Source: Verrucomicrobiales bacterium (GTDB lineage Bacteria > Verrucomicrobiota > Verrucomicrobiia > Limisphaerales > F1-80-MAGS106). Taken from it: 16,579 nucleotides of DNA. Shown one piece after another: positions 9,421-9,554 of this stretch. Below the pieces are notes generated by a model. The model saw only the letters and a list, made by a program, of their open reading frames with translations. It did not search any database and was not told the origin of the DNA. Each line of letters starts with the position of its first letter. Position 1 is the first letter of the stretch. Location of the stretch: assembly GCA_005805305.1 (NCBI GenBank), contig SYMW01000294.1:1-16579 (forward strand), read 5' to 3'. A program made the translations under genes and the position numbers.

Positions 9421-9554
9421 CCATGAACCGGGTGCCTCCTCTCCCGCCCTTCCGCCGTCGCCACAAGGGCTATGGCGGACAAGTCGGGCACCCTCTCCTC
9501 CGCCCCAAAGCGGAGGAGAGGGACGGGGAGAGGAGGTGCTCCTTCGGTTCATGG
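9421..9554. repeat. 134-nt nested imperfect palindrome built from CT-rich/GA-rich 11-mers (CCTCCTCTCCC … CCCTCTCCTCC | GGAGGAGAGGG … GGGAGAGGAGG) with 9-bp outer arms ccatgaacc/ggttcatgg
   Basis: Outer arms 9421-9429 and 9546-9554 are perfect complements. Motif A (9435-9445) pairs with A' (9526-9536). Motif B (9490-9500) pairs with B' (9511-9521) around a cccaaa loop. The element sits in the intergenic region between two minus-strand genes. Confidence 0.5.

Follow-up and report, generated by a model that had tools for sequence, protein, structure and literature searches.

The palindromic element at positions 9421 to 9554 of the window, the whole 16,579-nucleotide stretch of DNA analysed here, is probably a single copy of a DNA repeat that is non-coding, interspersed and prone to fold, and not a device of its flanking genes; structure-prone selfish DNA is its most likely nature. 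Judged from its sequence, its core is of the BoxC, PIT or TM kind, in a variant with 11-nt stems that is distinct from the strict Escherichia coli family (TM_ECO). For the window itself this outcome is deflationary, as the palindrome would represent a dispersed repeat copy and not gene control.

The element is intergenic and lies between two minus-strand genes, a MORN_2 gene and a gene of 221 aa. The initial annotation had described a nested CT/GA-rich palindrome of 134 nt with perfect 9-bp outer arms and two nested pairs of 11-nt homopyrimidine and homopurine motifs. The sequence is present as described, with small corrections: the outer arms pair perfectly but are 10 bp long, and both 11-nt pairs were recovered, one between 9435-9445 and its complement at 9526-9536 and the other between 9491-9501 and 9512-9522. 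The features of the region are as follows.

8771 to 9352, minus strand: MORN_2 gene, flanking the element
9421 to 9430, no strand: left arm of the outer inverted repeat (the frame), CCATGAACCG, with an exact 10-bp complement at 9545-9554, paired in every fold
9435 to 9445, plus strand: block A, CCTCCTCTCCC, the fourth arm, Watson-Crick complementary to the third (RH) block by its match to 9526-9536 and in the fold
9446 to 9489, plus strand: helix P2, predicted by RNA folding, with a GCCC/GGGC base (9446-9449 with 9486-9489) bearing a hairpin at 9451-9479
9491 to 9501, plus strand: block B, CCCTCTCCTCC, pyrimidine (Y) domain within the class II triplex motif and pairing partner of 9512-9522
9502 to 9511, plus strand: loop 1, GCCCCAAAGC, whose GC/GC ends lengthen the hairpin stem in the RNA fold
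9512 to 9522, plus strand: block B', GGAGGAGAGGG, the purine (R) domain from the triplex motif scan
9523 to 9525, plus strand: loop 2, ACG, 3 nt like the E. coli motif (triplex motif scan)
9526 to 9536, plus strand: block A', GGGAGAGGAGG, which mirrors B' exactly and serves as reverse-Hoogsteen (RH) domain (triplex motif scan), with block A as alternative Watson-Crick partner
9545 to 9554, no strand: right arm of the outer inverted repeat, CGGTTCATGG, complement of 9421-9430
9658 to 9687, minus strand: promoter-like site TTGAAA-18-AATATT, on the gene strand and upstream of the element there, a weak consensus match (1 found against 0.2 expected) given as context only
9767 to 10432, minus strand: orphan gene of 221 aa, flanking the element

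If the promoter-like site is real, the element lies within the 5' leader of the MORN transcript. Block A could also serve as a parallel pyrimidine third strand for B'; it is invariant in the alignment of the closest relatives except for one base in the soil contig L140, and an upstream arm resembling it occurs in only about 5 of 127 metagenome copies. The hairpin on P2 is private to the window copy, being a 33-nt insertion where relatives read GCCC-TTC-GGGC (alignment A2), and blastn-short found no match to this insertion elsewhere among the collected loci. In the RNA fold, the B/B' stem gains two further pairs and reaches 13 bp. A 52-aa ORF called in the source assembly, possibly a spurious one, takes in the element's final 19 nt.

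A long multi-branched hairpin on either strand had been proposed, and a three-way junction is indeed predicted for both strands by RNA folding. The RNA fold reaches -99.2 kcal/mol on the plus strand (z -9.2) and -90.0 kcal/mol on the minus strand (z -6.9), and none of 200 shuffled sequences folded as stably; the corresponding DNA folds reach -52.7 and -50.6 kcal/mol (z -8.7 and -7.4). The core (9491-9536, plus strand) consists of block B, a 10-nt loop, B', ACG and A', and its third block exactly mirrors the second, so that it can lie antiparallel in the major groove. This is a class II purine-motif layout with 11 of 11 perfect triplets (8 G·G-C and 3 A·A-T), unique in the window. Among 300 dinucleotide-preserving shuffles of the window, scanned on both strands, 291 contained no motif of at least 6 triplets, and the longest had 7 against the 11 observed.

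The earlier suggestion of triplex (H-DNA) potential stands insofar as mirror tracts define the element; their kind, however, is an intrastrand fold-back triplex layout rather than only classical H-DNA. The published ITxF definition (Holder et al. 2015, PMC4666352) calls for the block order Y-R-RH on one strand with R complementary to Y, which is found here at 9491-9501/9512-9522/9526-9536. It also calls for a third block forming 6 to 15 G·G-C, A·A-T or T·A-T triplets with at most one mismatch, against the 11 of 11 found here, and for loops of 1 to 6 nt; loop 2 has 3 nt, and loop 1 has 10 nt between the 11-mers or 6 nt when the two extra GC pairs are counted. Classical H-DNA is also formally possible, since GGAGGAGAGGG-ACG-GGGAGAGGAGG makes up a purine mirror repeat of 11+3+11 without mismatch (definition in PMC4666352). 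However, H-DNA requires only a duplex mirror repeat, whereas the element has a pyrimidine block on the same strand, the intrastrand hallmark, and the arms in the window are short. In the window copy, block A matches the third block perfectly for Watson-Crick pairing, so the triplex may lose out to a hairpin or cruciform.

A REP/MITE-like genomic repeat was among the options first listed, and it is borne out by the core, of which other genomes and metagenomes carry multiple interspersed copies. The pattern B'-N3-A' was found in more than 120 metagenome contigs among the matches listed, and an nhmmer search with the core returned 194 sites in 137 loci. At least 8 instances of the full four-block architecture, with sharp similarity edges, lie on 6 contigs of the Verrucomicrobiota MAG BP_782, and it is also present in L140, Pedosphaera L081 and Archangium L021. 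The 11-nt-stem variant is common in Verrucomicrobiota-like soil and freshwater bacteria, and the same design with other arm sequences was found in Acidobacteriota, Chloroflexota and others. No second core copy was found within the approximately 25 kb scanned of the 59.2-kb source contig (ERZ27257035:k141_736340, positions 6409-31408). The element's own translation had no matches in the protein database, and plasmid and phage collections yielded no element match, although the BLAST low-complexity filter may hide some.

The way in which the copies vary is informative about the layout. The 3-nt spacing of loop 2 is kept in copies found independently of that spacing, as ACG, AGG, ATG and TGG or, in L081 and L021 read on the complementary strand, as TTG and TCG. 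Loop 1 differs in sequence across copies and shows a mean of 1.67 extra Watson-Crick pairs versus 0.33 in shuffled loops. In the covariation check that had been proposed, compensatory changes are present in loop 1 and the apical extension (alignment A2); the stems are invariant and do not covary. Furthermore, 115 of 284 purine-arm hairpin strand-views are followed by the mirror of R with at most one mismatch and 29 by a direct repeat, a count restricted to hairpins whose arm was not fixed by the search patterns, each counted on both strands. For each of about 30 distinct purine-arm variants, the mirror block matches that particular arm, A being faced by A or T. The third block consistently mirrors the purine arm and changes together with the other two blocks, the pattern expected if a triplex-compatible geometry is conserved or generated. 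Since the arms of the window family are not self-symmetric, the mirror is visible, unlike in the nearly symmetric E. coli arm (GGGAGAGGG).

BoxC, PIT and TM elements have been known since the 1990s and, to our knowledge, have been assigned no function. The window element shares with them an order of three blocks on a single strand, in which a pyrimidine block rich in C is followed across a loop by the purine block complementary to it and then, after a loop of 3 nt, by the mirror image of that purine block. Blocks built from words of the CCCTC/GAGGG type and palindromic (paired) arrangements are shared as well. The likeness extends to the wider family, which is intergenic, multi-copy and unannotated, with no tie to orientation or gene class and no transposase among the 25 commonest families nearby. 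The E. coli motif is multi-copy too (median of 15 places per genome), nearly always chromosomal and unannotated. The published survey of TM elements covers Proteobacteria and Cyanobacteria and does not mention PVC bacteria (Holder et al. 2015, PMC4666352); earlier descriptions of BoxC and PIT are taken here as cited within it. Its TM_ECO pattern is a class II motif, CCCTCNCCC N3-6 GGGNGAGGG N3 GGGNGAGGG, always intergenic, without strand bias, link to gene class or transposase nearby, and occurring also in inverted pairs (PMC4666352). In that work, the E. coli elements formed a stable triplex as single-stranded DNA and stopped polymerases in vitro, their loci showed raised local deletion and rearrangement, and triplex formation was undetected in vivo (PMC4666352).

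The element also differs from TM_ECO. The window stems have 11 nt (CCCTCTCCTCC) versus 9 in E. coli (CCCTCNCCC), and consequently the strict TM_ECO regular expression found no match on either window strand, where the blocks read CCCTCTCCTCC, GGAGGAGAGGG and GGGAGAGGAGG. Loop 1 has 10 nt versus 3 to 6, and the fourth block is nested round the hairpin, whereas E. coli palindromes are two whole inverted motifs. The window copy also adds the P2 helix with its private hairpin and the outer 10-bp inverted repeat, and its host is a PVC-type bacterium. In the literature, the 11-mers matched only eukaryotic primers and aptamers of no relevance, and a search for later literature on triplex-motif elements in PVC bacteria found no paper.

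REP and REPIN sequences are also short, GC-rich, intergenic palindromes in multiple copies, often in mosaic clusters with other repeats, and are mobilised by RAYT transposases that act on GTAG- or CGTC-tagged palindromes (PMC3733652). The element, in contrast, is much longer and branched. It contains no GTAG or CTAC, and its single CGTC (9456) lies inside the private hairpin and not at a palindrome foot, where REP sequences bear the conserved tag on palindromes of 20-40 bp. A RAYT (Y1 transposase) gene with the repeats on its flanks would be expected in the same genome for REP sequences; no RAYT was seen, and no transposase is present among the 25 commonest of the 159 families in the relatives' 150 flanking ORFs. 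PVC bacteria are known carriers of REP-like repeats.

As a probable repeat of the BoxC/PIT/TM kind, the element might work as follows. The pyrimidine block and its purine complement would form a hairpin, and after the 3-nt loop the mirror purine block could fold back as an antiparallel third strand. The window copy adds a fourth block that would pair with the third, a short helix with the private 33-nt hairpin and a 10-bp inverted repeat closing the whole. With these additions, either separated strand could adopt a triplex or else a three-way hairpin, the latter equivalent to a cruciform when the DNA is duplex. By analogy with the E. coli relatives (PMC4666352), any action would be expected at the DNA level, on strand separation. 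If the region is transcribed, the minus-strand mRNA would include a predicted three-way junction of -90 kcal/mol, with 69 nt between its end and the MORN start codon. The repeat might have spread by hairpin-dependent transposition of single strands in trans or by template switching, both of which are guesses. Elements of this kind may mark rearrangement-prone spots and, being unannotated, can pass for regulatory RNAs or spurious small ORFs.

The element shows no sign of regulating its neighbours, and control of the giant-gene or MORN genes is unlikely. Pfam searches of the 150 flanking ORFs returned 159 different families, none of them recurrent. Orientation was also balanced: where a gene's 3' end faces the element, the orientation was that of the gene in 49 cases and the opposite in 42, and where the 5' end faces it the counts were 47 and 43, all from heuristic GC3-rule gene calls checked on the window's known genes and otherwise in aggregate only. 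In relatives, the syntenic loci (giant gene, TSP3_bac, MORN) have spacers of 58 nt or 311 nt without the core. The 221-aa gene is an orphan and hence provides no orthologous spacers. One relative's syntenic spacer holds GTAG-type REP palindromes in place of the core.

Against this background, a role of the RNA within the operon, in which the minus-strand three-way junction would act as a barrier to 3'-exonucleases, a processing site or a partial factor-dependent terminator, is considered unlikely. REP elements in E. coli act as such RNA-level barriers and processing sites, and the element does lie between two minus-strand genes with a strong minus-strand fold (-90 kcal/mol, z -6.9). Two features of the other copies point the same way. 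The third block is followed by a T-run in 27% of the copies, versus about 8% at control positions, an enrichment which hints that some subfamilies could act on transcripts. In addition, 28 of 42 pyrimidine-arm substitutions are C to T, a bias that keeps G-U or G-T pairing on the purine-bearing strand, but this count is confounded because the search patterns fixed the purine arm and left only the pyrimidine arm free to vary. The same confounding affects the comparison of G-U with A-C asymmetry as a way to tell RNA from DNA selection. The wobble pairs of the window copy itself, moreover, favour the plus strand and not the mRNA strand, and the family has no orientation preference towards its neighbours. 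The element also lacks a U-tract and any terminator-like site, and PIT elements were inactive as terminator or promoter in E. coli according to work cited in Holder et al. 2015 (PMC4666352). The RNase-processing or Rho-utilisation site that had been suggested as the end of the giant-gene transcript is not supported, given the lack of orientation preference and the coreless syntenic giant-gene/MORN loci.

An intrinsic (Rho-independent) terminator was rejected. The initial annotation had already noted that no U-tract follows and that the structure is no canonical terminator; both observations hold, as the plus strand continues with AAAGTT and the minus strand with CCTTGA, and the scan of 9200-9900 found 0 terminator-like sites on either strand.

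It is important to consider the outer arms separately, as they could be the 10-bp terminal inverted repeats (CCATGAACCG) of a MITE, serving as ends for a transposase encoded elsewhere, with the triplex core as cargo. We regard this explanation as quite unlikely. Bacterial MITEs such as Correia, RPE and ERIC are intergenic, about 100 to 200 nt long, with terminal inverted repeats and stem-loop potential (PMC3184786), and the element resembles them in its typical size of 134 nt and its perfect 10-bp inverted-repeat arms, of the kind that defines MITE ends. Identical arms also frame varied cargos, sometimes in tandem (L127, L140, L180, L181). The frame CCATGAACC...GGTTCATGG surrounds triplex cores in L118, L134, L140 and L224, with a one-mismatch version, CGATGAACC...GGTTCTTGG, around the triplex core in L226, and surrounds other hairpins in L127, L140, L180 and L181; on this sequence comparison, the outer inverted repeat is common to the element and a second repeat family. 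However, no target-site duplication is present, as the flanks (atcaagg on the left and aaagttg on the right) share no direct repeat, and no cognate transposase was seen: even the commonest family is present in at most 3 of the 150 flanking ORFs, and neither transposase nor integrase is among the 25 commonest of the 159. In other contigs, the conserved sequence runs asymmetrically past a 9-bp repeat (GGAGGCTCT on one side and TCCCAATGCGCG on the other), so the repeat is not the element end there. Core relatives without terminal repeats are found as well, as the BP_782 cores lack the left outer arm and stop at the pyrimidine/purine blocks, and the plasmid and phage collections again gave no match.

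The closed architecture of four blocks (in the order A, P2, B, loop, B', N3, A') might instead be a selected bistable device and not a repeat plus debris, a reading to which we give little credence. The third block would then pair with block A by Watson-Crick bonds, giving the three-way hairpin or cruciform, or by Hoogsteen bonds on the B/B' duplex, giving a purine triplex. On the complementary (mRNA) strand, block A would lie parallel to the purine block in a pyrimidine-motif triple helix of C+·G-C and U·A-U triplets, a type that can form in RNA too. Were this the case, the PVC-wide 11-nt family and its mirror rule, with some 30 arm variants in several phyla, would be comparative evidence for a selected triplex geometry, and what BoxC/PIT elements do would become directly testable.

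A cis-regulatory RNA specific to the MORN/Band_7 genes, whether riboswitch-like or acting as a control element in the 5'-UTR, or an independent small RNA, is very improbable. The element's place 69 nt upstream of the MORN start codon, the weak promoter-like site upstream on the gene strand and the strong predicted structure would suit such a role. The core, on the contrary, adjoins 159 unrelated gene families in both orientations, MORN homologues at syntenic or orthologous loci lack the element, and the stems are invariant with variation confined to the apical extension. Rfam gave no credible match to the element even at E<=1, the sole hit being a chance miRNA (E 0.31, 20.6 bits against a gathering score of 88), and nothing at gathering score on the whole window. 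The two related options listed at the outset, a structured ncRNA and a 5'-UTR control element for MORN, are accordingly not supported: Rfam gave no match, the copies adjoin 159 Pfam families without orientation preference, and syntenic MORN loci lack the core. A riboswitch or leader was dropped for the missing Rfam match and the unrelated neighbours, and an attC-like site was considered and dropped.

A fortuitous low-complexity palindrome or G-quadruplex tract without a family is scarcely credible, despite the low-complexity sequence and a purine tract that contains no more than a two-tetrad pattern: no three-tetrad motif exists on either strand, NMR favoured triplex over quadruplex for the E. 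coli motif (PMC4666352), and the chance reading is refuted as far as sequence statistics (0 of 200 shuffles folding equally well; longest shuffled triplex stem 7 against 11) and family recurrence (identical blocks in hundreds of contigs) reach. The smaller GA-rich hairpin that had been noted beside the element (9383-9399) does exist, but it is weak and imperfect (-6.8 kcal/mol, equalled in 2.4% of mononucleotide shuffles).

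On the best-supported reading, the 134-nt palindrome at 9421-9554 of the window belongs to an interspersed, structure-prone class of DNA repeat, the BoxC/PIT/TM kind, known from E. coli and carrying an intrastrand triplex motif. The observation made in the initial annotation is confirmed and its interpretation was partly right. Re-reading bore out the palindrome, with outer arms of 10 bp instead of 9, and both nested pairs of 11-nt pyrimidine/purine motifs are present in the following architecture:

9421-9430 and 9545-9554: outer arms, CCATGAACCG and its exact complement; predicted helix P1a
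9435-9445: block A, CCTCCTCTCCC, with its complement at 9526-9536
9491-9501 and 9512-9522: blocks B, CCCTCTCCTCC, and B', GGAGGAGAGGG
9431-9445 with 9526-9540: predicted helix P1b
9446-9449 with 9486-9489: predicted base of helix P2, bearing the hairpin 9451-9479
9491-9503 with 9510-9522: predicted helix P3

A branched hairpin on either strand had been proposed, and the fold check predicted a three-way junction for both strands with RNA and DNA energies. The predicted folds are statistically significant: as RNA, the plus strand reached -99.2 kcal/mol (z -9.2) and the minus strand, in the same three-way shape, -90.0 kcal/mol (z -6.9), each matched by 0 of 200 dinucleotide-preserving shuffles, and DNA parameters gave -52.7 and -50.6 kcal/mol (z -8.7 and -7.4). 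The outer four pairs of P1b are mostly G-U and form on the plus strand only. The smaller GA-rich hairpin described at 9383-9399 is present but weak (-6.8 kcal/mol, equalled by 2.4% of shuffles).

Because the purine block 9526-9536 mirrors 9512-9522 exactly at 3-nt spacing, besides being the complement of 9435-9445, the plus strand of 9491-9536 has a five-part order of pyrimidine block, loop, complementary purine block, 3-nt loop and mirror purine block. By its sequence, this core is organised like an intrastrand triplex of the class II purine motif: the third block would run antiparallel alongside the hairpin's purine arm, giving 8 G*G-C and 3 A*A-T triplets. The triplex potential earlier attributed to mirror-like purine/pyrimidine tracts is made more specific by this intrastrand layout. 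A simple finder returned the core as the sole such motif in the window, with a stem of 11 triplets; among 300 dinucleotide shuffles searched on both strands, 291 contained no motif of at least 6 triplets and the longest reached 7. A chance palindrome is effectively excluded, as no shuffle folds as well and the triplex stem exceeds that maximum.

In E. coli, this design was named BoxC first, then PIT elements and then TM_ECO, with the pattern 5'-CCCTCNCCC N3-6 GGGNGAGGG N3 GGGNGAGGG and 23 copies reported in K-12 (Holder et al. 2015, PMC4666352). These copies are always intergenic, without strand bias, beside genes that share no function and with transposase or integrase absent nearby; two motifs occur in inverted configuration in five cases (PMC4666352). 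By BLAST, the published motif was present in 5419 of 5426 genomes at a median of 15 places per genome, almost exclusively chromosomal and with no annotated feature overlying the matches. In vitro, single strands of the motif fold into a stable triplex; a triplex went undetected in duplex DNA and by in vivo DMS footprinting, and the motif loci show more rearrangement or deletion among strains than control intergenic sites (PMC4666352); earlier work, as cited in that paper, reported polymerase blocked in vitro and no promoter or terminator activity. By analogy with these relatives, any effects of the window's element would act at the DNA level: a transient hairpin, cruciform or triplex on strand separation, polymerase pausing, and local deletion or rearrangement. 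The window's variant is new relative to PMC4666352, which does not describe it.

Copies of this variant were collected as stretches, here given L-numbers, from genome and metagenome collections. The genome scan (CCTCCTCTCCC N60-90 GGGAGAGGAGG) returned 109 stretches, and the four-block order (A, GCCC-loop-GGGC, B, loop, B', N3, A') recurs in at least 8 copies on six contigs of the Verrucomicrobiota MAG BP_782 (L012, L023, L070, L074, L078 and L089), where similarity begins exactly at block A, stops past a downstream purine block and leaves unrelated flanks. MAGs of Pedosphaera (L081) and Archangium (L021) share the architecture, other inserts taking the place of P2. In the metagenome scan, the mirror pair GGAGGAGAGGG NNN GGGAGAGGAGG was found in at least 120 contigs, and in nearly all listed matches the pyrimidine partner directly precedes the pair (exactly in 93 of 130, with one change in 33 of 130). 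Furthermore, a profile search of the collected loci (1.44 Mb) gave 194 sites in 137 loci, with two to four on many contigs, and found no second copy in the roughly 25 kb covered of the source contig; that contig, within which the window lies, is ERZ27257035:k141_736340 of the ENA metagenomes (59.2 kb). Plasmid and phage collections gave no match to the element by BLAST, whose low-complexity filter may mask some. The REP-like genomic repeat, one of the options first offered, thus agrees with a core that is multi-copy and dispersed in other genomes and metagenomes.

In the covariation check, the three helices are invariant in the closest relatives and the P3 apical extension alone varies, with compensatory changes (AU to GC, UA to CG). 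Across 91 copies, loop sequences that are otherwise unrelated add a mean of 1.67 extra Watson-Crick pairs, compared with 0.33 when shuffled. The search patterns preset the purine arms of most collected copies, and this confounds a G-U versus A-C comparison of the selected strand or nucleic acid.

As the 11-mers are not self-symmetric, a mirror can be distinguished from a direct repeat. All perfect hairpins in the collected loci that have a purine-only arm were considered, omitting search-fixed arms. A mirror of the purine arm (at most one mismatch) lay 1-6 nt downstream in 115 of 284 strand-views, and therefore in about four in five hairpins, each being viewed on both strands, and a direct copy in only 29 of 284, mostly for nearly symmetric arms; the loci behind these counts were collected for having such motifs and are not independent genome samples. 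For around 30 distinct arms the mirror fits its own arm, A being faced by A or T as purine-motif rules permit, so all three blocks change together, as in these pairs:

GGAGGAAGGGG then GGGGAAGGAGG: L155
GGGAGAAGG then GGATGAGGG: L028
GGGAGAGAGGGG then GGGGAGTGAGGG: L082
GGGAGAGGAGGG then GGGAGGTGAGGG: many Acidobacteriota/Thermoanaerobaculia loci, the search having imposed the first two blocks only

Acidobacteriota/Thermoanaerobaculia and a Chloroflexia MAG have triplex-motif repeats of their own, with 11-13-nt stems (L007 6606-6662, L015 4094-4153, L093 3227-3267, and at least 14 loci of MAG GS_EKS_MAG_00001, e.g., L017, L025, L041), T opposite A in the third block (GGAGGTGAGGG) and usually two inverted motifs flanking an A/T-rich centre. 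In Hyphomonas genomes (loci L005, L006, L010, L016 and others), a double-hairpin repeat of 82-95 nt is present in many copies, and its ends use the words CCTCCTCTCCC / GGGAGAGGAGG; because the mirror third block is missing, this is a plain REP-like element and not a triplex motif.

It is the mirror rule across many arm variants, together with a bistable four-block form, that is the most interesting residue of the analysis. In the window's copy, the fourth block, A, is a perfect Watson-Crick partner of the third block, and because these two pair, each strand would have two competing folds, the three-way hairpin or the triplex. An upstream arm like A occurs in only about 5 of 127 listed metagenome copies, collected without reference to block A, and about 40% of the 127 have instead a partly complementary pyrimidine run downstream. 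The complementary strand, here that of the mRNA, reads A, CGT, B, loop, B', and, judged from the sequence, its block A could run alongside the purine arm in parallel orientation, making C+*G-C or T*A-T triplets at 11 of 11 positions. Such a pyrimidine-motif triplex needs acid conditions and is also possible in RNA (PMC4666352). P2 carries a 33-nt hairpin in the window's copy compared with a 3-nt loop in aligned relatives, and this insert has no other occurrence in the collected sequence.

An RNA-level role is possible, in which the minus-strand transcript would be processed at the element or protected by it from exonuclease. In its favor, the third block is followed within 20 nt by a T-run (at least 4 T) in 37 of 135 copies (27%), compared with 10-12 (about 8%) at control positions; this excess may come from a downstream module that is conserved in one subfamily, such as CGCTTTTTATC then CCCCTCTCTCC... 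However, the copies are indifferent to gene context. With flanking genes called heuristically, as open frames under a GC3 rule that recovers the window's known genes, a gene 3' end faces a copy in 91 instances (49 co-oriented, 42 opposed) and a 5' end in 90 (47 and 43), without significant orientation bias. The 150 ORFs nearest to copies carry 159 different Pfam families, the commonest three times, with no transposase among the 25 commonest. Additionally, no U-tract follows the element and a terminator scan of 9200-9900 found 0 terminator-like sites, as expected from the earlier statement that it is not a canonical intrinsic terminator. The negative E. coli experiments (PMC4666352) also argue against an RNA-level role and, with the orientation data, against the suggested RNase-processing or Rho site ending the giant-gene transcript.

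Besides its BoxC/PIT/TM-like core, the element has an outer 10-bp inverted repeat that is part of a second interspersed repeat family, the frame, for which no published description was found. The CCATGAACC ... GGTTCATGG frame surrounds triplex cores in L118, L134, L140 and L224 (one-mismatch version in L226) and, in L127, L140 (tandem second unit), L180 and L181, GC-rich hairpins of a very different kind. The sequences that border it in those contigs are conserved and differ between the two sides (GGAGGCTCT and TCCCAATGCGCG); the window copy retains the 10-bp arms only. Frame units are located as follows:

L127: 612-775 and 810-910
L140: 5636-5709
L180: 11215-11317
L181: 515-624
Window: 9421-9430 / 9545-9554

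The order within the frame is ...GAAAGGAGGCTCT-CCATGAACC-cargo (a variable, GC-rich hairpin)-GGTTCATGG-TCCCAATGCGCG..., at times in tandem, and the triplex core is just one among several cargos. Because core and frame come from separate repeat families, the element is a mosaic, in like manner to the BIMEs of E. coli, which are mosaics of REPs. The frame could possibly be a MITE driven by a transposase; of the MITE option raised initially, the terminal inverted repeats stand as the 10-bp arms, but the defining target-site duplication was not seen at the element, nor was a transposase seen associated with the copies.

No relation of the element to the giant-gene or MORN genes is demonstrated. 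Its surroundings comprise:

8771-9352, minus strand: MORN_2 gene, then Band_7
9536-9694, plus strand: 52-aa ORF of the source assembly's gene caller, opposite to all neighbours and overlapping the palindrome's last 19 nt
9658-9687, minus strand: weak sigma-70-like promoter match TTGAAA-18 nt-AATATT, between the 221-aa gene and the element
9767-10432, minus strand: orphan 221-aa gene after the 2349-aa collagen-like gene, overlapping the giant gene's end by 4 nt
10429-16579 and past the window, minus strand: giant gene, 2349 aa in the contig

The ORF of 52 aa may be spurious because it has no family match on record. The giant gene has collagen-like GXY triplet repeats (9-nt periodicity and multiples), neighbouring genes in the source contig include PSCyt2, PSD1 and DUF1501, which indicate a bacterium of the PVC superphylum, and among named relatives of the MORN protein the nearest comes from a Verrucomicrobia MAG. 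The element stops 69 nt short of the MORN start codon and, if the promoter match is real, is part of the MORN/Band_7 transcript's 5' leader. Nevertheless, a gene-specific regulatory RNA is unlikely, and the structured ncRNA or MORN 5'-UTR control first suggested is disfavored: no Rfam family matches the element or window, no gene tie was seen, and the core is absent from syntenic loci. There, MORN homologues (44-57% identity) are grouped with a giant gene and a TSP3_bac gene in a conserved cluster, and the spacer before MORN, of 58 nt (L236) or 311 nt (L233-L235), lacks the triplex core. The cluster with MORN_2 is conserved in these distant relatives. Their 311-nt spacers are filled with GTAG-tagged REP-like palindromes (L233 3800-3965, from a Verrucomicrobia relative, also L234 and L235: two GGTAGGGCGAGGCTCCTGCCGAGCC units plus one long inverted pair without mismatches), so the same kind of spacer gathers different repeats by lineage. 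The outer arms in the window have as their core the 8-mers CCATGAAC and CATGAACC; these also occur once per relative's TSP3_bac-MORN spacer (L236 3952-3959; L233 3707-3714), just past the upstream stop codon, and could be a frame relic or a coincidence.
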